Source: an uncultured Clostridia bacterium (GTDB lineage: Bacteria; Bacillota; Clostridia; Christensenellales; UBA1242). From it: a stretch of 64,000 bases of DNA. The stretch is taken from the NCBI GenBank assembly GCA_934747775.1, contig CAKVHA010000002.1:70361-134360 (forward strand), given 5' to 3'. Both the position numbers and the translations under genes were made by a program. Below the pieces are notes generated by a model, which saw nothing but the letters and a program-made list of their open reading frames with translations, did not search any database and was not told the origin of the DNA. Shown here one piece after another: positions 2,460 through 55,407 of this stretch; the first letter of the stretch is position 1, and each line of letters begins with the position of its first letter.

Positions 2460-2652
2460 ACATAAGTTTTGAACAATGTAATAATACATTAATTTGGTTT
2501 TTATGTCAAGAGTATTTTTGATATTTCTTTACTAATTTTAACAAAATGTGCAATTATTTTAATATAATGAATTACAATAATTTAAAAACAATAAAAAAAT
2601 GTATTGACAAAATTATAATTTTAGCATATACTAATTTATGTAAACTGAATAT

Positions 2653-2736: not shown

Positions 2737-2766
2737 AAGCAACATTAGGTAATGTTGCTTTTTTTG
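2737..2766 (+). terminator. intrinsic terminator after tRNA-fMet
   Basis: AAGCAACATT-aggt-AATGTTGCTT followed by TTTTT. Confidence 0.85.
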
Positions 2767-2826
2767 TTGTGAAATGTGCTGGTGTTAAAAATTAAAGCGG
2801 CTTTATTTATACTAAAACCAACTGAG

Positions 2827-2854
2827 TTGATATAATACACAAATTTGCTATACT
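2827..2854 (+). promoter_or_regulatory. orphan sigma-A-type promoter
   Basis: TTGATA (2827-2832), 16-nt spacer, TATACT (2849-2854). No ORF follows; only the GC-rich element does. Confidence 0.6.
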
Positions 2855-2858
2855 TACT

Positions 2859-2990
2859 GGACTACCCCACCACCGCAAAGCGGTCCCCCGCCCGCAAACA
2901 CTCACCCCAAGTAACCTGGTTTCTTCGGGGACCCCGAGCAAGGGGCGGACAAAACAAAACCAGCCTAAAGAAAAACTTTGGCTGTTTTTA
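2859..2990 (+). ncRNA. candidate ~130-nt C-rich structured sRNA (element copy A), unclassified
   Basis: Sits between the orphan promoter and a hairpin plus T-run (CAGCCtAAAG-aaaaa-CTTTGGCTG-TTTTT, 2961-2990). Strongly GC/C-rich in an AT-rich genome. Hairpins at 2872-2884 and 2905-2930. No ORF. Related copies lie at 10477-10527, 28511-28592 (-) and 28688-28745 (+). Confidence 0.55.
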
Positions 2991-2996
2991 TAAAAA

Positions 2997-4040
2997 TTAA
3001 AAATTAAATACTAATTTTGATTTTTTATTAGCTAATTCCTTATCGGTGTAATCGGAACTATTTAGCACATACTCTATTTTAGAGTAGCCATGCTCCCCTG
3101 CTTCTTGTAAATAGTTAGGTTTGAAACCTGCCACTGTTAAGCTGGAATTTAGCGTAGAATACGCAATCTCTATATTATCGTTAAAGCAAGTGAGTTTGGT
3201 TACACCTAAATTTTTAAACGCATATTTTGCAATAAAACCAACAACATCGCTAAACGAAATATCATAATACTCGCTATCGCAAATTATTTTTAGCGCGTAA
3301 CTATTATCTTGTTTTATAATGCCAACTAGCGACACAATTTTGTTTGTGGCTGTGTTACTTACAACCCACGACATAACCAAAGTGGACTCAACAAAATTGT
3401 TAAGCACCATTGTGCGGGCGGTTTTTGCGTGTTTGTAATTTGGATTAATAAAGAAAGGCAACTCGCCCACATAACCTTCGCCCCTAAACACGCCCTTTAA
3501 GCGTACTAAGTCTCTACCAACAAGCGGCTCTATAATATGATTTTTATCATAATAGTAACCATTTAGTTTTTGCTCGGCGTAATCAAAAAAGTCTAGGGCG
3601 TATGGTTTATTAACATCAACTTCACCAAACGAAAAAATCACAGGTTTTTGCGGGTCGTTAAACATAACCGACTGGTCTAGCGCTTTTAGTATTTTTGCAA
3701 GTCCCAAATTGTTTTTAACCGACATATTTATACCCACAACGGTGCGGTTGTTAAAATACACATTATGCTTTTCTAAATATTTTGCAAACTGGTCTATGGT
3801 GCTATAATAATGGTCGGCTCTAAACATATTTATTTGATAATTTTTAACTATAAACTTTTTGTAATCGTTAAAATACAAACTTGCTTCCTTCTTATCAAAA
3901 TAAAAGTATTGAGTATATGATTTTCCATTAAAATCGTACTCATCACGCGGAAAAATATCAAAAAAATTATGCGTTGTGTTGCAATAATTTTCTAGTTCTT
4001 TTTGTGGTTTTTCTAATGTTTTTTTAATAATTGGTTCCAT
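2997..4040 (-). CDS. hypothetical protein with GNAT-like C-terminal region
   Basis: ORF 2997..4058 begins with GTG, and the first ATG is at 4040 (MEPIIKK); the start is uncertain. The C-terminal part (VVGFIAKYAFKNLGVTKLTCFNDNIEIAYSTLNSSLTVAGFK) resembles the acetyl-CoA-binding core of GNAT acetyltransferases. The N-terminal ~200 aa is unrecognised. Confidence 0.5.
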   Translation of the reverse strand: MEPIIKKTLEKPQKELENYCNTTHNFFDIFPRDEYDFNGKSYTQYFYFDKKEASLYFNDYKKFIVKNYQINMFRADHYYSTIDQFAKYLEKHNVYFNNRTVVGINMSVKNNLGLAKILKALDQSVMFNDPQKPVIFSFGEVDVNKPYALDFFDYAEQKLNGYYYDKNHIIEPLVGRDLVRLKGVFRGEGYVGELPFFINPNYKHAKTARTMVLNNFVESTLVMSWVVSNTATNKIVSLVGIIKQDNSYALKIICDSEYYDISFSDVVGFIAKYAFKNLGVTKLTCFNDNIEIAYSTLNSSLTVAGFKPNYLQEAGEHGYSKIEYVLNSSDYTDKELANKKSKLVFNF

Positions 4041-4081
4041 ATAATAATATATTATCACAAAATCTTGCTTGTTGCAACACT

Positions 4082-5887: not shown

Positions 5888-6877
5888 TTACGCTGCTTTA
5901 GCTTGTTCTTTTGCTTGTTTTTTGGCATCCTTTTTTGCTTTTTTAAGTTCTATTTTAAACGCTTTCTTTTCTTGTTTTGTCATATTTTTAGTTTTTTCTT
6001 TAGCTTCTTTTTTAAGACGTTTTTTGCGTTCCTTTTTGCTTTCAATAGGCTCAATATCAAGCTCTTGCTCTAGTAAACTAGGATCCATCATATACTTTTT
6101 AAACATTCTAACTGACTTTACAAAATAAAATCCGTCGCAATAACGCTCTTCGGTGGTCATACCCATTTTTAGCACTTTTCCTGGTACAACTTTATCGTCT
6201 TCAACAACTGGCTCCATATGTTCTTTTCCGATACTATAAAACATACCTGTTGTTCCAAAATTGTAAAGGTGATGATGAATGTAATCACCGTGAAGTGACT
6301 TAAGATTTGTAAAATAAAAACTTGTGTGAAATGGTGAAACATCAATAAGTTTTTTTGGCATAATTCCAAAATGGTCTAATACACGCAAAGTATTAACAGC
6401 AAATCTAACAAAACAATTTGGAATAAATTGAAAAAACTTTGCAGTTTTTTCGGTGCTATTTTGATTAAGCGCATTTTTAATTGACTTATCCAAAAGCTCT
6501 TTAACCTGATAAATATTTTCTCTGCCAGTAAAGCGAATTTTCATTGTAGCGTCTGGGCTATCGTCGCCTAATCCCTTTTTAACAGTAAACGACACATATA
6601 GTCCATTTCGTTGATAAATTCTGCCAGCAACCGCAAATCTATTTAGTTTTTGGCGAATTGCATACAAACGCACTGCACCAGCTAGCAAAATATCCATATA
6701 AGAAAAAACAACACCCTCTTTTTCGCGTTTTTCTTTTATCCACGCGTCAAGCGGTTCACAACGCAACTCCACAACGTTTAAGTTCATTGCGTCGTTACGC
6801 GTTTTCATAATAACAGGAACAAGGGCGGTTTCGGGGTCAACCTTAACCTTTACTCCATCACTTCTAAATCCAAACAT
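5888..6877 (-). CDS. stand-alone 2-oxoacid dehydrogenase E2 / CAT-fold acyltransferase-like protein with Lys-rich tail
   Basis: The end of the fold, ...MTTEERYCDGFYFVKSVRMFKKYMMDPSLL, aligns by eye with the E2 catalytic motif (DHRxxDG...F...P..L). No lipoyl domain. The C-terminal KKE-rich tail generates the antisense shadow ORFs. Confidence 0.5.
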   Translation of the reverse strand: MFGFRSDGVKVKVDPETALVPVIMKTRNDAMNLNVVELRCEPLDAWIKEKREKEGVVFSYMDILLAGAVRLYAIRQKLNRFAVAGRIYQRNGLYVSFTVKKGLGDDSPDATMKIRFTGRENIYQVKELLDKSIKNALNQNSTEKTAKFFQFIPNCFVRFAVNTLRVLDHFGIMPKKLIDVSPFHTSFYFTNLKSLHGDYIHHHLYNFGTTGMFYSIGKEHMEPVVEDDKVVPGKVLKMGMTTEERYCDGFYFVKSVRMFKKYMMDPSLLEQELDIEPIESKKERKKRLKKEAKEKTKNMTKQEKKAFKIELKKAKKDAKKQAKEQAKAA

Positions 6878-6991
6878 AATTTTTCTCCAAGTATTTTAGT
6901 ATAGTTTTTTAATAATTTATTATAACTTTATTTAATAAATTTGAAAAGGGATTTTAGTCAGATTTACCAAATTTATAAAAAAATAGCAAAA

Positions 6992-10300: not shown

Positions 10301-10399
10301 TGCTGTTATTATACTTACTCCATCTGTTTAAAGAGTGAGCTTATATAAACCACAGATAGTTTAAGGTGCTGGTCGCATTGACCGTATCAAGCTAGTGCT
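10271..10399 (+). repeat. two ~35-nt direct repeats, 94-nt period
   Basis: GGTGCTGGTCGCACGACTGTATCAGACTAGTGCT (10271-10304) versus GGTGCTGGTCGCATTGACCGTATCAAGCTAGTGCT (10365-10399). The first copy overlaps the degV stop. Confidence 0.8.
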
Positions 10400-10476
10400 A
10401 TAGTAATACACACTCTTTCTGTTTTTGGGTCACTTGGCGTGACAGCCAGTATTTAAATAAATCCTTAAACCTTGTG

Positions 10477-10572
10477 TCACCCCAAGAAACTATGTTTCTT
10501 CGGAGACCCCGAGCTGTGCGGACAAAAAAAAGATACAATCATAAGTTCTATATATCTAACTACCCTTTGGTA
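10477..10572 (+). repeat. fragments of the GC-rich element family
   Basis: 10477-10527 TCACCCCAAGAAACTATGTTTCTTCGGAGACCCCGAGCTGTGCGGACAAAA aligns with 2902-2954 (about 42 of 53 positions by hand count). 10559-10572 ACTACCCTTTGGTA is an exact 14-nt match to copy C (reverse complement of 28566-28579). Confidence 0.7.
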
Positions 10573-28065: not shown

Positions 28066-28308
28066 TTATTGCTGATTGTCCACTAGCACTTTTAGTTGCG
28101 CAACAATAAGTTTTGTTTGCTTGTTTAGTGCTAAAAAATCGTTTTCGTTTTTCTTAATTTCCTTAATTAGTTCGGATTGATCTAATCCCACCGACATTTC
28201 ATAGCGTTTTAAAAGCTCTTTCTTTTTTGCTTGCAATTTTTCTAGCTCAACACTTGCATTCTCTAACGCTTTTCTTAATTCATCAAGTTTTTGTCTGTTA
28301 ATCTCCAT
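28066..28308 (-). CDS. small coiled-coil protein (80 aa)
   Basis: Within ORF 28066..28410. ATG 28308 follows a GGGAGTG RBS and lies downstream of the promoter at 28370-28398. MEINRQKLDELRKALENASVELEKLQAKKKELLKRYE... shows heptad character. Confidence 0.6.
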   Translation of the reverse strand: MEINRQKLDELRKALENASVELEKLQAKKKELLKRYEMSVGLDQSELIKEIKKNENDFLALNKQTKLIVAQLKVLVDNQQ

Positions 28309-28369
28309 ATTTTCACTCCCTATTTTTATTTGTCTTTTTGTTTTTATTGTCACATTACCATATATAAAT

Positions 28370-28398
28370 ATTTTACCAAAAAATGGGCTAAATGTCAA
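28370..28398 (-). promoter_or_regulatory. promoter of the coiled-coil gene
   Basis: Minus strand: TTGACA (28393-28398) - 17 nt (TTTAGCCCATTTTTTGG) - TAAAAT (28370-28375). Confidence 0.7.
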
Positions 28399-28510
28399 AT
28401 TTGATAACATATTGGTTTAGCACTCTTTCCCCCACAAACTCTCACCGATAAAATAAGCAAATACCTTTATGGTGGAAGTTTTTTAAATGTGATACGCTTC
28501 TAACATATTA

Positions 28511-28592
28511 GACTAATCCCACAAGCCTTGTGTCCACTTGTAAGGGGAAGGTGGTAGCCAACGGCTACCAAAGGGTAGTCCAGTAAGTATAC
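28511..28592 (-). repeat. GC-rich element copy C (minus orientation)
   Basis: The minus strand reads AAATTTCGTATACTTACTGGACTACCC, against copy A AAATTTGCTATACTTACTGGACTACCC (2841-2867). This is followed by hairpin GGTAGCC-gtt-GGCTACC (28553-28569) and CCACCTTCCCCTTACAAGTGGAC. Confidence 0.75.
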
Positions 28593-28687
28593 GAAATTTG
28601 TTTATTATGTTGTGTTTGTTGTCTTAGCGCAAATTAAACCGCAGAAGTACTGCAATGAATATAACCAACAAAACTGGTAAATAAGCC

Positions 28688-28745
28688 GGACTACCCCACC
28701 ACCAGTCGTTCGACTGGTCCCCCGCCCGCTTACAAGGGACGGATA
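28688..28745 (+). repeat. GC-rich element copy B (plus orientation)
   Basis: GGACTACCCCACCACC (28688-28703, identical to 2859-2874), hairpin ACCAGTCG-tt-CGACTGGT (28701-28718), GGTCCCCCGCCCGC (28716-28729, identical to 2882-2895), then TTACAAGGGACGG. Confidence 0.8.
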
Positions 28746-28801
28746 AATTTCAAATAACAGTTTTATTTCTTTCAAGGTGACACAGGCAGTATAAGGATAA
28801 T

Positions 28802-28848: not shown

Positions 28849-30312
28849 TTAAAAAATATCGTCTACAATGTCACTTTCTTCTAGCGGAACAATATCTGGT
28901 AAGTTTTCGTCTGGTGGAGTAACTTTATTAAACTCTGGTGGTTCGGTACCTTCTAGGCTTTGAGAGTTTGCATCTTTTTCCAAATTAACAAAAGTTGTAG
29001 TTTCGCCAATCCACTTAACCTTAACTGTGCCTTGTGGACCATTACGGTGTTTTGCTACGATAATTTCGGCGATATTTTGACCAGCAATTTCTTTAGGACA
29101 ATCTTTGTACATATCTGGACGATACACAAAAATAACAATATCGGCATCTTGCTCTATTGCGCCCGACTCTCTAAGGTCGCTAAGCATTGGGCGGTGGTCG
29201 GTACGCGACTCTACGCCACGACTTAACTGCGATAGCAAAATAATAGGCACATCAAGTTCTTTTGCAGCAATTTTTAGGTTACGCGACATACTACTAACTT
29301 CTTGTTGACGGCTTTCTGGAGTTTTGCTGTTGCCACTCATAAGTTGAAGATAGTCAATCATAACAAGGTCTAGCCCGTGTTCACGTTTTAGCTTGCGGCA
29401 CTTACTTAAAATCTGCATTGGAGTTGTAAGTGAGTTATCGTCGGCATAGATGCTGGCGTTGGCAAGTTTTTCTTTAGCGCTCCAAAGCGCTTTCCAATCT
29501 TTAACCGAAAGTTCGCCTTTTAGTGCGCGCTCCATACTAACATACGCAACACTGCAAAGGCTACGTTGTGCTAGCTGGCTTTTAGGCATTTCTAGCGAGA
29601 AAATTGCGCATTTTTTACGACCGTTTACTGCTGCGTAGTTTACAATATTCATAGCAAGTGATGTTTTACCACTACCTGGACGTCCTGCCACCAAAATAAG
29701 GTCACTATTTTGCAAGCCGTTTGTAATTTTATCTAGCCCATAAATACCTGTGGATATTCCGCGAAGGCTGGTTTTGTCTTTTTGAATTGTTTCAAATTTA
29801 TCCATAACGCCGTCTAGCGAGTCGTTTAACGGAGTAAGTTCGCCGTGGTCGTCTTCACGCCCAATATCGAAAATGTTTTTTTCCGCCATTGCAATTGCAT
29901 CGGCTTTTTCGTGACCTTCGTATGCGTAATTAATTATGTCGTTAGAGCGGTTTATAAGCTTTCTTAGCACGCTATCGCGTTTTACAATATCTATGTAGTG
30001 TTTGTAGTTGCTAGCACTTGGAACAATGTTGGTTAGGGTTGTTATGTATTCTAGCCCGCCAACAGATTCTAATAAATCCGATTTTTCTAGTTCGTCGGTT
30101 AGTGTAACTAGGTCTACTGGGCTGTTACGCTTATACACTTCGTACATTGCGTTAAAAATAATCTTATGCGCTTCCACATAAAAGTCGTCGCCATTTAGTG
30201 CGCTTATTATATTAAAGCCAGCATCTTGGTCTATTAACACACAACCTAACACGCTTTGCTCGCCTTCTATACTGTTGGGCATTCTACGCCCTTCTACCTT
30301 AGTGCTTTTCAT
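28849..30312 (-). CDS. dnaB: replicative DNA helicase
   Basis: N-terminal PNSIEGEQSVLGCVL, Walker A GRPGSGKTS, IDYLQLM and the RecA-fold motifs of DnaB. Confidence 0.95.
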   Translation of the reverse strand: MKSTKVEGRRMPNSIEGEQSVLGCVLIDQDAGFNIISALNGDDFYVEAHKIIFNAMYEVYKRNSPVDLVTLTDELEKSDLLESVGGLEYITTLTNIVPSASNYKHYIDIVKRDSVLRKLINRSNDIINYAYEGHEKADAIAMAEKNIFDIGREDDHGELTPLNDSLDGVMDKFETIQKDKTSLRGISTGIYGLDKITNGLQNSDLILVAGRPGSGKTSLAMNIVNYAAVNGRKKCAIFSLEMPKSQLAQRSLCSVAYVSMERALKGELSVKDWKALWSAKEKLANASIYADDNSLTTPMQILSKCRKLKREHGLDLVMIDYLQLMSGNSKTPESRQQEVSSMSRNLKIAAKELDVPIILLSQLSRGVESRTDHRPMLSDLRESGAIEQDADIVIFVYRPDMYKDCPKEIAGQNIAEIIVAKHRNGPQGTVKVKWIGETTTFVNLEKDANSQSLEGTEPPEFNKVTPPDENLPDIVPLEESDIVDDIF

Positions 30313-50262: not shown

Positions 50263-50350
50263 GCAGAGTTGGCTGAGCGGTCGAAAGCGGCGGTCTTGAA
50301 AACCGTTGAAGTGAGAGCTTCCTGGGGTTCGAATCCCTAACTCTGCGCCA
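50263..50350 (+). tRNA. tRNA-Ser (anticodon UGA), type II with long variable arm
   Basis: GCAGAGT/ACTCTGC acceptor, anticodon loop CTTGAAA, long variable arm, GGTTCGAATCC T-loop, GCCA end, and a hairpin plus T-run terminator right after. Confidence 0.9.
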
Positions 50351-54117: not shown

Positions 54118-55200
54118 TTAATCCTTAATTTTCTCCCAAGGGAAAGCGGAGTTTCCAAAGTGACCATAGCAAGCTGTTTGTTTGTAAATTGGTTTTAATA
54201 AGTTTAATTCTTTTATTATATTACTTGGCGAAAAATCAAAGTTTTTGTCAACAAATGCATATATTTTGTCAATACCTATCTTTTCAGTGCCAAATGTTTC
54301 TATATTTATGGACAATGGTTTATTTAAGCCTATACCATATGAAACTTGAATTTCACACTTATCGGCAAGATTGTGGGCAACAATGTTTTTTGCAACATAG
54401 CGAGCATAATATGCGCCAGAGCGGTCAACCTTAGTAGCATTTTTACTAGAAAAACAACCACCGCCAACTCTGCCAATTCCACCATATGTATCCACCACAA
54501 TCTTACGACCAACGCAGCCACTATCGCCAAACGAGCCCCATATTGTAAACTTGCCGCTTGGGTTTATTATATATTCTGTGTTTTTAGCAATGTCACTATA
54601 TTCACTTATAACCACATTTAAAACATTTGTGGTTATAAGTTTTTTTATTTCGTCTAGGCTTAGGTTTTTACTATGCGAAACAGAAATCAACACCGTGGTA
54701 ATCTCAGTTGGAGTGTTGCCGTCATACTCCACAGTTACTTGACTTTTAGCGTCGGCAAAAAAGTCGGAACGCGACTTTCTAAATATTTCGTACTGGCGCA
54801 TAATTTTATGGGCAAGTAAAATTGGAAGTGGCATATACTCTTTGGTTTCGTTGGTTGCATATCCGTATATTATTCCTTGGTCGTTGGCACACAATTCCTT
54901 TTTTACAACCGCTTGATTTATGTCGGGACTTTGTTCGCTAATTTCTTTAATAATATCAAAATGACAAGTATAGCCAATGTCTTTTAAAATAGACCTTGCT
55001 ATACCGTCGTAGTCAATTTTGGCTTTTGTGGTTGCTTCGCCATAGATAAAGAGCTTGTTGTTTTTAATGGCACACTCCACTGCCATTTGTGAGTTTGGGT
55101 CGGACGCCAATGCGGCATCCAAAAATGCGTCGGCAATTACATCGCAAGTTTTGTCGGGGTGACCAATGTTTACGCTTTCGCTTGTTAAATATTTTTTCAT
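54118..55200 (-). CDS. metK: S-adenosylmethionine synthetase
   Basis: LTSESVNIGHPDKTCDVIADAFLDA, GDQGI-type and GGGAFSGKD-like (GGGCFSSKN) motifs. ATG 55200 has an AAGGA RBS. The ORF-track start at 55230 abuts the riboswitch terminator. Confidence 0.92.
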   Translation of the reverse strand: MKKYLTSESVNIGHPDKTCDVIADAFLDAALASDPNSQMAVECAIKNNKLFIYGEATTKAKIDYDGIARSILKDIGYTCHFDIIKEISEQSPDINQAVVKKELCANDQGIIYGYATNETKEYMPLPILLAHKIMRQYEIFRKSRSDFFADAKSQVTVEYDGNTPTEITTVLISVSHSKNLSLDEIKKLITTNVLNVVISEYSDIAKNTEYIINPSGKFTIWGSFGDSGCVGRKIVVDTYGGIGRVGGGCFSSKNATKVDRSGAYYARYVAKNIVAHNLADKCEIQVSYGIGLNKPLSINIETFGTEKIGIDKIYAFVDKNFDFSPSNIIKELNLLKPIYKQTACYGHFGNSAFPWEKIKD

Positions 55201-55240
55201 TTTTTTATCCTTTATTTTTTGTATTTCCATAAAGGGGGTT

Positions 55241-55407
55241 AAAAAAATCCCATCGTTCCCGATAGGATAAATATTTTAATTCTGTTCCCATCGGTCAGCC
55301 TTTAGCACCTTGGCAATGTCGCTAGGTTGCTGTGTGGTCAACGGGGCTGTCCCTCGCACACTCTTTATGGATAATTAAATATTAACTTAAAAAATTTGGT
55401 TTGTCAA
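55241..55407 (-). promoter_or_regulatory. SAM-I (S-box) riboswitch with promoter and terminator
   Basis: Minus strand: TTGACA (55402-55407) - 17 nt - TAATAT. Aptamer core ...AAAGAGtgtgcGAGGGAcaGCCCCgttGAccacaCAGCAACC...AAGGTGCTAAaggCTG...AGAA. Terminator ATCCtATCG-ggaa-CGATgGGAT-TTTTTTT (55268-55241). Confidence 0.85.

Follow-up and report, generated by a model that had tools for sequence, protein, structure and literature searches.

A GC-rich orphan unit in a 64-kb window carries a member of a widespread interspersed repeat family with a candidate intrastrand-triplex fold

A GC-rich unit beside a convergent gene

Within the window (the whole 64-kb stretch of DNA that was analysed), the GC content of positions 2850-2949 is 0.62, compared with 0.355 across the window. 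This segment, referred to as copy A, has a promoter-like site on one side and a terminator-like hairpin on the other (Table 1). Reading of the sequence bore out the layout recorded in the first-pass annotation: TTGATA and TATACT separated by 16 nt, four C-runs (ACCCCACCACC at 2864-2874, GGTCCCCCGCCCGC at 2882-2895, CTCACCCC at 2901-2908 and GACCCCGAG at 2930-2938), two hairpins, and a further hairpin followed by a T-run. There is also no credible ORF, as had been proposed; the only overlapping frames are mechanical ones of 51 aa (+ strand, with a TTG start upstream of the likely transcription start site) and 44 aa (- strand).

In the promoter scan, the promoter-like site of copy A scored 10/12 matches and contained an extended -10 TG, and the predicted start (~2860-2861) falls 4-5 nt 5′ of the conserved block that we call block 1. 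Promoter-like hexamers are frequent in the AT-rich surroundings, with 8 found by the scan compared with 2.7 expected. At the other end, the hairpin at 2961-2984 consists of a CAGCC/GGCUG stem plus AAAG/CUUU with an AAAAA loop, is followed by TTTTT at 2985-2989, and sits 12 nt past the stop codon of the convergent ORF 2997-4058(-). Because the hairpin is bidirectional and lies so close to this stop codon, the terminator need not belong to the RNA unit. Thus, of the promoter-to-terminator unit originally proposed, the good sigma-70-type promoter and the downstream T-run hairpin both stand, but the terminator may be that of the neighboring ORF.

Table 1. Features of copy A and positions of its relatives in the window
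Feature	Coordinates	Strand	Remarks
Promoter-like site, sigma-70-type	2827..2854	+	TTGATA 2827-2832, 16-nt spacer ending TG-c, TATACT 2849-2854
Leader GGACU(A) before repeat core	2860..2864	+	(G)GACUA / ACUA prefix also in Firmicute-type MAG copies
Block 1, CCCCACC	2865..2871	+	Unpaired in 2D; mirror image of hp2 5′ strand
Hairpin hp1, ACC-GC-AAA-GC-GGU	2872..2884	+	Closing ACC/GGU pairs family-invariant; distal part varies
CCC linker	2885..2887	+	Invariant; joins hp1 to hp2
hp2 5′ strand, CCGCCC	2888..2893	+	Pairs with 2943-2948
49-nt insertion in hp2 loop	2894..2942	+	Lineage-specific; contains hairpin 2905-2930
hp2 3′ (purine) strand, GGGCGG	2943..2948	+	Followed by family-typical AC
Terminator-like hairpin, intrinsic, bidirectional	2961..2989	both	UUUUU on +, GUUUUGUUUUG on -
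Copy C, intact short form	28688..28747	+	GGACUA-CCCCACC-ACC[AGUCGUUCGACU]GGU-CCC-CCGCCC..GGG(A)CGG-AU
Copy D, partial relative	28520..28613	-	36 nt (92%) common with copy A over -10 box and GGACUACCC
Copy B, partial relative	10399..10531	+	ATA(G)TAATACACA segment, inner domain and GCGGACAAAA common with copy A

The window contains two intact and two partial copies of the element in its 64 kb. Copies A and C are each located just past the bidirectional terminator of a convergent gene, which in the case of copy C is dnaB (28849-30312, -). Copy D is identical to copy A in the -10 and start region, the only part of the copy A promoter that the two have in common; past the common segment it continues with a different hairpin and then UUACAAG as in copy C, and it lacks the hp2 3′ strand. 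Copy B has neither block 1 nor hp1 nor the hp2 5′ strand, and it alone was found to share the 49-nt insertion of copy A (at 10476-10531 in copy B). Within this insertion, the hairpin at 2905-2930 reads CCCCAAG..CTTCGGGG. The 49-nt inner domain was absent from the 498 homologous loci searched, and three viral matches to it were rejected as chance matches in coding DNA. Copies B and D look decayed or mosaic, copy A alone among the window copies passed the promoter scan, and copy C was weak.

A repeat family spanning several phyla and phages

The core of copy A (2865-2950) and copy C belong to a widespread, previously unannotated interspersed repeat family, the consensus of which is CCCCNCC-ACC[hairpin]GGU-CCC-CCN'CCCC[loop]GGGGN''GG-A, with 5-30 nt of variable sequence inside the ACC...GGU of hp1. 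A covariance model (R1) was constructed from 46 foreign sequences, none of them from the window. In a 128-kb search space, R1 matched copy C (28688-28747, 43.2 bits, E = 2.2e-7) and copy A (2865-2953, 32.8 bits, E = 2.9e-5, with the 49-nt insert placed in the hp2 loop), and in the window search it matched neither copy B nor copy D. Because this model was made without any sequence from the window, the copy A region is more than a chance assembly of hairpins, and its description as a discrete, structured GC-rich element is upheld.

The repeat was found at no fewer than 120 genome loci, those listed including Acidaminococcus, Phascolarctobacterium, Selenomonas, Caulobacter, Brevundimonas and Eubacteriales MAGs, and at a minimum of 120 metagenome loci, soil metagenomes included; phage contigs carry hundreds of copies, at up to 7 per 10 kb. 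The family thus ranges over the Negativicutes, Clostridia-like MAGs, Caulobacter among the alphaproteobacteria, soil metagenomes and many phage contigs, with soil alphaproteobacteria and their phages at one end and gut Firmicutes at the other, and it is present in proteobacteria and phages of 60-73% GC. About 35 core nucleotides are the same from alphaproteobacteria to Firmicutes and their phages, although the extreme conservation of the boxes is in part a selection effect, because exact boxes served as seeds in the database scans. A viral scan for the Firmicute-type, ACUA-prefixed form returned nothing, and scans that placed G or C at position 5 of block 1 returned nearly all background, with 5 and 2 real copies, respectively.

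Consistent with the earlier impression that the element matches no RNA class that can be named, no Rfam family was matched by the whole window at gathering scores or by positions 2740-3020 at E≤10; at the latter threshold the best match was unrelated, and terminator-type partial matches fell on the minus strand of the 2961-2989 hairpin. Rfam searches of 26 homologous loci gave no family, and a canonical inverted pair searched at E≤1 gave only sub-threshold matches to GC-rich plant miRNA precursors, which reflect its long hairpin. A full-text search of the literature with the literal box sequences yielded primers and unrelated matches only, and a BLAST search of annotated phage genomes with a canonical copy found none, probably an effect of low-complexity filtering. 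HDV-like and twister ribozyme folds, which were fitted by hand because of the phage and intercistronic context, were rejected since the P1/P1.1 or T1/T2 pairings are missing and the Rfam ribozyme models were silent. A generic intrinsic terminator was likewise rejected, as a T-run is present on either strand in only ~6% of copies.

The family is often multi-copy, often in inverted pairs, and neighboring copies were inverted in 57/61 cases. The orientation of copies relative to genes showed no bias (48 vs 33), and few copies lie in divergent promoter regions (5/100). These properties agree poorly with the claim of a stand-alone gene, because the relatives occur in both orientations and have no conserved promoter and few T-runs. 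The pattern that the first-pass annotation had associated with a MITE or REP-like element, that is, homologues dispersed in either orientation without conserved promoter or terminator, is at the family level largely what we observed, most copies standing in inverted pairs. One group differs in its arrangement: in HK97/GTA-like phage structural modules, the C-rich strand is the mRNA sense in 8/9 single copies, which are located between consecutive structural genes, with a median distance of ~22 nt to the start of the called ORF that follows, a pattern that resembles what would be expected of a role at the RNA level. A CUAC (GTAG on the other strand) adjoins block 1 in the Firmicute-type copies only, most copies being without it.

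Covariation of two helices and of a mirror block

Both hp1 and hp2 covary. Paired combinations account for 96.9% of cells, and 127 double-change cells were counted compared with 41 in shuffles (0/500 shuffles). The covariation extends to block 1, which is unpaired in the two-dimensional fold. In an unbiased, N-containing scan of the metagenome collection, block-1 position 5 co-varied with an hp2 pair (Fisher p = 1e-5); among the matches listed, the combinations of block-1 base and hp2 pair were (U, U-A) in 137, (A, G-C) in 4, (A, U-A) in 3 and (U, G-C) in 1. Copies A and C, in which CCCCACC accompanies CCGCCC/GGGCGG, belong to the (A; G-C) class, which is also found in Negativicutes, Caulobacter and Eubacteriales copies.

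Variants in which all three segments have changed still have a block 1 that mirrors the hp2 5′ strand (permutation test, 0/10000). Written as block 1, hp2 5′ strand and hp2 3′ strand, these include CCCUUCC, CCUUCCC, GGGAAGG; CCCCCUC, CUCCCCC, GGGGGAG; UCCCUCC, CCUCCCU, AGGGAGG; CCUCUCC, CCUCUCC, GGAGAGG; and CCCUCCC, CCCUCCC, GGGAGGG. Antiparallel Watson-Crick pairing between block 1 and the hp2 3′ strand was tried as an explanation; it accounts neither for the A/G-C class nor for CCCUUCC, CCCCCUC and UCCCUCC. As judged from these alignments, block 1 and the hp2 5′ strand change jointly, which is a signature characteristic of intrastrand triple helices. On the C-rich strand, block 1 is the candidate third (Hoogsteen) strand; on the G-rich strand, its complement is the candidate reverse-Hoogsteen strand. 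We infer from this signature that the triplex itself forms.

The same comparisons bear on the C-runs of copy A, which had been interpreted as the hallmark of a small RNA of the RsaE/RoxS type acting against Shine-Dalgarno (SD) sequences. Two of the runs are conserved helix strands or linkers, and one is the block that covaries as the mirror of a helix strand; they do not look like loop-exposed seeds. Since the runs are invariant blocks of a repeat family that extends to proteobacteria and phages of high GC content, the anti-SD interpretation is unsupported, and copy A is not a recognizable regulatory small RNA.

The folding strand and the competing explanations

The closest known kind of element is the BoxC/TMECO group of "potential intrastrand triplex" repeats (BoxC, PIT and TMECO; Hoyne, Maher et al. 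2000; Holder et al. 2015, PMC4666352), of which the family described here is a new variant that carries a hairpin in its connector. In both, pyrimidine, purine and mirror-related third G/C-rich blocks follow one another on one strand, the G-rich strand has a class II arrangement and its complement a coupled pyrimidine-motif class, and copies are intergenic, numerous and often inverted, without consistent gene association. They differ in sequence (CCNCCCC/GGGGNGG/GGNGGGG in the new family vs CCCTCNCCC/GGGNGAGGG/GGGNGAGGG in TMECO), in block length (7 vs 9 nt), in the connector that joins the purine block to the third block (GGG plus the ACC...GGU hairpin, 13-40 nt, vs a 3-nt loop), and in distribution (alphaproteobacteria, Negativicutes, Clostridia-like MAGs and phages vs enterobacteria). 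Because the ITxF search limited loops to 1-6 nt, and the connector of CCC/GGG plus hp1 is longer than that definition, this search could not have found the new family. The TMECO hairpin core, CCCTCNCCC-N3-6-GGGNGAGGG, was not found in the window, so that the full pattern CCCTCNCCC-N3-6-GGGNGAGGG-N3-GGGNGAGGG is excluded there as well, and TMECO-type hairpins co-occurred in 38/501 homologous loci. The TMECO DNA triplex was demonstrated by CD and NMR, although it was not detected by in vivo DMS footprinting (PMC4666352). Such physical demonstration is limited to TMECO, and the triplex of the new family is proposed from sequence comparison.

Two asymmetries across the family indicate that the G-rich strand is the one that folds. 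At hp1 pair 4, the C strand has G-C in 135 copies, A-U in 125, A·C in 107 and G·U in none, and read on the other strand the mismatches become G·U in 107 and A·C in 0. Similarly, the hp1 triloops are TNC in 100/128 cases on the C strand, corresponding to GNA on the G strand, and GNA was found on the C strand in 0. A point against the favored fold is A opposite G-C, the majority class in the lineage of the window: no textbook triple corresponds to it on the C strand, and its G-strand counterpart would be U·C-G, a triple of only moderate favorability. Read on the G strand, the three main classes give A·A-U, U·A-U and G·G-C, all of them canonical triples of the purine motif (see also PMC4666352). 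RNA is reported to form pyrimidine-motif intrastrand triplexes but no purine-motif ones (PMC4666352). It is from these patterns that we infer both the functional strand and the functional nucleic acid.

On balance, we favor the explanation that the element is a widespread interspersed repeat with an intrastrand-triplex fold that acts mainly at the DNA level in the manner of a REP, and that copy A is probably transcribed. One strand of the repeat would fold into two adjacent GC-rich hairpins, and the 7-nt flanking block could then occupy the major groove of the second hairpin to give an intrastrand triple helix. Selection for folding would act on the G-rich strand, for which a purine-motif (class II) triplex is feasible in single-stranded DNA, so that the structure would be transient and present when the DNA is single-stranded. 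The repeat would tend to lie 3′ of genes and would probably be self-propagating and structural. In this genome it sits within a mosaic unit whose modules are common to four related loci, and in copy A the unit has a good promoter directed into the C-rich strand and ends at the bidirectional terminator of the neighboring gene. Given this promoter and terminator, a C-rich RNA of ~130 nt is plausibly, indeed probably, made, and this RNA could take up the same structure in its pyrimidine-motif (class IV) form. The strong extended -10 promoter of copy A facing the C-rich strand, with its -10 and start region kept in copy D, counts against the DNA-level explanation. Any biological role assigned to the repeat is putative.

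REP, BIME and REPIN elements are likewise short, GC-rich extragenic palindromes that occur in many copies, as singles and as short-spaced inverted pairs, with a preference for the 3′ side of genes and mosaic neighboring modules. Unlike REPs, which are species- or RAYT-specific, the new family has a core conserved across phyla, and it consists of two hairpins and a mirror block with no general GTAG or CGTC tag. A decaying, selfish MITE- or REP-like repeat without host function, in which the structure is needed by the mobilizing machinery and the promoter is fortuitous, would fit the partial and mosaic state of the four window loci, the high copy number and inverted pairs seen elsewhere, and the local abundance of promoter-like hexamers. 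However, a lineage-specific transposase hardly explains the retention of the same core from alphaproteobacteria to Firmicutes and phages, and we consider this origin distinctly unlikely. Very unlikely, in our judgment, is a stand-alone trans-acting sRNA whose C-rich stretches pair with G-rich SD regions. Like C-rich sRNAs such as RsaE/RoxS, 6C and CcsR, copy A would give a short, GC-rich transcript with several C-runs, and it has a promoter-like site and T-run hairpin of its own, a predicted fold with an MFE of -38.2 kcal/mol (z = -1.9), and a block 1 that is single-stranded in two dimensions. Yet no Rfam covariance model, that of RsaE included, matched it; helix strands, a linker or a partnered block make up its C-runs, which do not resemble loop-exposed UCCC; and they covary with an intramolecular partner while remaining invariant across unrelated phyla with different ribosome-binding contexts. 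The homologues, moreover, are interspersed repeats rather than a syntenic single-copy gene, mostly without promoter or terminator, the terminator here is more simply assigned to ORF 2997-4058(-), and two of the four window copies appear decayed or mosaic.

A different possibility, which we regard as rather unlikely, is that the C-rich strand is a functional structured RNA in which CCCCNCC and hp2 form a pyrimidine-motif (C+·G-C / U·A-U) triplex beside hp1. Such a compact knot would keep exonucleases away from RNA ends or be pH-responsive, since the C+ triples and an A+·C wobble at hp1 pair 4 need protonation; it would cap the 5′ ends of small transcripts in the window and punctuate polycistronic phage mRNAs. 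The position of the predicted copy A start 4-5 nt upstream of block 1, the 8:1 bias toward C-strand sense in the HK97/GTA-like phage group, and the seven canonical parallel triples given by the dominant class (CCCCUCC / GGGGAGG) are consistent with this proposal, as is the frequent A·C at one fixed position, which could be a protonated wobble. On the other hand, six adjacent C+ triples are unfavorable at neutral pH, G·U is wholly avoided where A·C is tolerated (0 vs 107), the C-strand loops are TNC and not UNCG or GNRA, a block-1 A facing G-C or U-A does not give a canonical triple of the parallel motif, and orientation relative to genes is unbiased overall. That pyrimidine-type intrastrand triplexes form in RNA, and purine-type ones reportedly do not (PMC4666352), speaks for the proposal. 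If folded in this way, the RNA would resemble ENE/MALAT1, SAM-II, preQ1-II and SAM-V triplexes in placing a terminal strand in the major groove of an adjacent helix, and ENE-type elements in that it could shield an RNA end. Those RNAs use U·A-U-rich triples with A-rich tails or ligand-binding pseudoknots, whereas the predicted C-rich RNA would have mostly C+·G-C triples and neither a Watson-Crick pseudoknot nor a ligand pocket. It is unlikely, too, that the family as a whole represents an all-RNA pyrimidine-motif triplex module of several phyla and their phages, built of up to seven triples between a 5′ tail and a hairpin with a second hairpin as buttress, that serves as a protonation-sensitive, exonuclease-blocking cap or punctuation and lies here at the 5′ end of an RNA family of ~60-130 nt.

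Bacterial intrastrand-triplex repeats are known mainly from one enterobacterial family, BoxC/TMECO, on biophysical evidence. The repeat family described here supplies the comparative evidence that has been missing, namely covariation indicating that the three-strand relationship is itself under selection, over hundreds of independent copies in alphaproteobacteria, Negativicutes, Clostridia-like bacteria and phages, and in an architecture, with a hairpin in the connector, that existing triplex finders exclude. For annotation, the family accounts for conspicuous GC-rich islands resembling orphan sRNAs in AT-rich genomes and for many spurious small ORFs and hairpins in GC-rich genomes. It also offers a tractable system in which to ask whether the triplex forms in cells, which strand and which nucleic acid would carry it, and whether its roles include the blocking of polymerases or nucleases, genome plasticity or the protection of RNA ends.

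Copy A and its relatives in the window

The first-pass annotation had proposed that copy A (core 2865-2950) encodes a stand-alone sRNA with C-rich regions like those of anti-Shine-Dalgarno sRNAs, and every feature it named was found in place when the sequence was read, among them two hairpins (2872-2884 and 2905-2930) and all four C-runs. The GC content is 62% over the 100 nt at 2850-2949 versus 35.5% across the window, the only ORFs over the region are mechanical ones, and the predicted RNA (2860-2991) folds at -38.2 kcal/mol (z=-1.9). The promoter scored 10/12 with an extended -10 element, a value to be read against the 8 promoter-like hexamers observed in the local AT-rich DNA, where 2.7 were expected. 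The T-run hairpin is at least common to the neighbouring gene, because it is bidirectional (GUUUUGUUUUG directly follows its minus-strand side) and lies 12 nt past the stop codon of ORF 2997-4058(-). Given the local promoter, a ~130-nt C-rich RNA from copy A is plausible, with the balance even. Copy A begins ~100 nt past the tRNA-Met terminator.

Positions of features in the window
Feature	Position	Strand	Remarks
Copy A promoter	2827-2832, 2849-2854	+	TTGATA, 16-nt spacer ending TG-c, TATACT; promoter scan
T-run hairpin	2961-2984	bidirectional	9-10 bp, then TTTTT; sequence
Copy B	about 10399-10531	+	inner domain CACCCCAAG..CUUCGGnGACCCCGAG..GCGGACAAAA in common with copy A
Copy C	28688-28747	+	core GGACUA-CCCCACCACC-[hairpin]-GGUCCCCCGCCCGC...GGGACGGA, as in copy A
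Copy D	about 28613 to 28520	-	36 nt at 92% identity to copy A
tRNAs	2269-2730 and 50263-50350		tRNA-Glu(UUC) and tRNA-Met(CAU) on -; tRNA-Met(CAU) on +; tRNA-Ser(UGA)
Promoter of plus-strand tRNA-Met(CAU)	2604-2632	+	TTGACA-17-TATACT; tRNA divergent
Terminator of plus-strand tRNA-Met(CAU)	2737-2760	+	
SAM-I riboswitch	55247-55373	-	RF00162, 54.7 bits; directly upstream of ORF 54118-55230(-); ordinary annotation

BLASTN and nhmmer identified three loci related to copy A in the window. Copy C lacks the 49-nt insertion of copy A, copy B lacks the 5′ half, and the 36 nt common to copies D and A consist of the -10 box and GGACUACCC, with divergence beyond; the four loci are thus mosaics of common modules. 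A covariance model (R1) built from 46 foreign sequences, window sequences excluded, had just two matches in the window, copy C (43.2 bits, E=2.2e-7) and copy A (32.8 bits, E=2.9e-5). We place copies A and C in a repeat family with high confidence, and B and D beside them as relatives of partial or mosaic make-up. Copy A alone among the four passed the promoter scan; copy D has a -10 element with a poor -35, and the copy C promoter is weak. Two convergent genes, ORF 2997-4058 and dnaB (28849-30312), end in bidirectional terminators, and copies A and C, respectively, are found just past these. ORF 28066-28410(-), 114 aa, has an internal Met as its probable start (MEINRQKLDEL...), which would give a coiled-coil-like protein of ~80 aa; since it carries its own 11/12 promoter with an extended -10 at 28398-28370, inside its 5′ part, the promoter-like module of copy D is unnecessary for that gene.

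The suggested likeness to RsaE/RoxS was not borne out as a family relationship: Rfam 15 found four tRNAs and one SAM riboswitch in the whole window and nothing else, with no meaningful match over 2740-3020 at E<=10. Across 26 homologous loci of other organisms, no Rfam family overlapped the repeat. A base-pairing anti-Shine-Dalgarno role for the window locus is quite unlikely. A tail-to-tail inverted pair of copies (L386:653-852) scored 52-64 bits, on both strands and below gathering, against the plant miRNA precursors MIR1437 and MIR1858, presumably because both are long GC-rich hairpins.

A dispersed repeat family

When viral contigs were scanned for exact matches to the two boxes common to copies A and C (CCCCACCACC-N4-30-GGTCCCCC), about 35 elements of clear homology turned up beside chance matches, with several on a single contig in HK97/GTA-like structural modules. 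Scanning one genome per species gave at least 120 loci, those listed including Acidaminococcus, Phascolarctobacterium, Selenomonas, Caulobacter, Brevundimonas, Sphingomicrobium, Ca. Enterousia and Eubacteriales MAGs, many with multiple copies per genome; the (G)GACUA prefix of the window copies recurs on Eubacteriales copies. A scan with T at box-1 position 5 was richer still (at least 120 phage loci), and R1 matched 128 times in genome loci and 165 times in metagenome loci. These collection scans were seeded with exact boxes, so that box conservation is partly by construction, and their counts are lower bounds. When both variable positions were set to N (unbiased scan), the dominant natural form was CCCCUCC-ACC[hp1]GGU-CCC-CCUCCCC[loop]GGGGAGG-A, in DNA of 60-73% GC. 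No published description of the family was found in the open-access literature; an earlier one is possible outside it.

Several loci showed further arrangements. In eight viral contigs (L007, L015, L020, L033, L001, L026, L046, L055), a second group, ..CACGGGGAUCGGACC-CCCCACCACC-[hairpin]-GGGUCCCCCCGCCGCCCCAUAC.., has a G-rich block upstream and lacks the downstream 3′ strand of the second hairpin (hp2); it may represent the same blocks in permuted order, or else an element of different origin that has the boxes in common. In the Acidaminococcaceae MAG JAZLLX01 (L089:2640-2960 and other contigs), the motif lies within a ~160-nt composite repeat with a TATAATCACAGGAACATTTTACCA module and heptamer-like runs (TAACTTC/TAACTTA; ACCTNAN); past hp2, GCGGAC..GUUCGC is a possible alternative hairpin overlapping the hp2 3′ strand, and composite units fill 860 nt of intergenic DNA upstream of hrcA-grpE-dnaK. 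Five copies in both orientations occupy 1.1 kb of Acidaminococcus fermentans (L142:6100-7300), flanking a small ORF, 6574-6963(-), with a putative, by-eye resemblance to DUF559/Vsr-like endonuclease domains. In a Selenomonas MAG, 270 nt separate a copy from a RAGATH-18 RNA upstream of it (L112:1363-1433(+), 65.4 bits), and repeat-containing loci also include a glmS ribozyme, a T-box, SRP RNA and tRNA clusters.

Coordinated variation and a putative triple helix

Two adjacent hairpins were predicted in every copy folded. Across 150 distinct metagenomic copies, 96.9% of helix cells were paired and both sides had changed in 127 cells, versus 41 in shuffles (0/500), and slid controls collapsed. Block 1 (unpaired, 7 nt) and the CCC linker were near-invariant. 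Block 1 also reads as the hp2 5′ strand in mirror image, and the two vary together: in the unbiased set, block-1 position 5 and the hp2 pair were (U,U-A) in 137 copies, (A,G-C) in 4, (A,U-A) in 3, and (U,G-C) and (C,C-G) in 1 each (Fisher p=1e-5). Rarer coordinated variants (block 1/hp2 5′ strand/hp2 3′ strand) were CCCUUCC/CCUUCCC/GGGAAGG, CCCCCUC/CUCCCCC/GGGGGAG, UCCCUCC/CCUCCCU/AGGGAGG, CCUCUCC/CCUCUCC/GGAGAGG and CCCUCCC/CCCUCCC/GGGAGGG. Antiparallel Watson-Crick pairing of block 1 fails to account for the asymmetric variants, and none of 10000 shuffles of block 1 among copies reached the observed parallel compatibility. The defining mark of an intrastrand triple helix is that one helix strand recurs in mirror order on the strand that carries the helix, and the topology is compatible with such a fold, the first hairpin (hp1) being adjoined by the 3′ end of block 1 and by the base of hp2. 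From sequence comparison, we conclude with moderate confidence that the family has been selected for an intrastrand triplex-capable fold.

The folding strand and the nearest described repeats

The triplex signature is symmetric and can be read on either strand. On the C strand it would give a pyrimidine-motif triplex (class IV) with the third strand 5′ and parallel to the purine strand (C+·G-C and U·A-U triples), and on the G strand a purine-motif triplex (class II) with the third strand, GGNGGGG, at the 3′ end and antiparallel (G·G-C, A·A-U and U·A-U). Two asymmetries in hp1 favour the G strand as the strand selected to fold. Pair 4, read on the C strand, is G-C (135), A-U (125) or A·C (107) and never G·U, and thus on the G strand G·U in 107 and A·C in 0; of 128 hp1 triloops, 100 are TNC when read on the C strand, and so GNA on the G strand, and 0 are the reverse, with TNNC (GNNA) tetraloops likewise common. 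The U-A pair of hp2 occurs with both A and U in block 1, which on the G strand are the canonical triples U·A-U and A·A-U. Because pyrimidine-motif triplexes are reported to form in RNA and purine-motif triplexes not to (Holder et al., PMC4666352), a fold of the G strand suggests action as single-stranded DNA, while any RNA role would need the C strand. The ~130-nt RNA of copy A could adopt the pyrimidine-motif version.

The genomic context of the family is REP-like. Among single copies with callable neighbours (genes at GC-rich loci were called with a simple GC3 filter), the C strand was sense in 48 and the G strand in 33, and 14 lay between convergent and 5 between divergent genes. Stop codons of genes ending beside hp2 were typically 8-18 nt away; neighbouring copies made up 44 tail-to-tail, 13 head-to-head and 4 tandem arrangements, and a T-run followed the structure on either strand in ~6% of copies. 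A possible RNA-level exception is the A/U-A class in HK97/GTA-like phage modules, which is 8:1 C-strand-sense; its copies separate successive structural genes and sit ~22 nt (median) upstream of called downstream ORFs. The family-wide sequence evidence favours G-rich single-stranded DNA as the functional nucleic acid.

The nearest described elements are the BoxC/PIT/TMECO repeats (5′-CCCTCNCCC-N3-6-GGGNGAGGG-N3-GGGNGAGGG), which have neither promoter nor terminator activity and are linked with genomic variability; TMECO forms a class II purine-motif intrastrand triplex as DNA by CD and NMR, undetected by in vivo DMS footprinting (PMC4666352). The new family, whose triplex is predicted from sequence comparison, shares their principle and lifestyle. 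It differs in sequence, block length and a conserved hairpin in the connector, which puts it beyond the reach of the ITxF search, with its loop limits of 1-6 nt. A pattern search found no TMECO-type hairpin (CCCTCNCCC-N3-6-GGGNGAGGG) in the window. Such hairpins accompany the new repeat in 38 of the fetched loci, phage and bacterial (for example L037, L049, L196, L270 and L089:2440-2480), which suggests that several intrastrand-triplex repeat families accumulate in some genomes.
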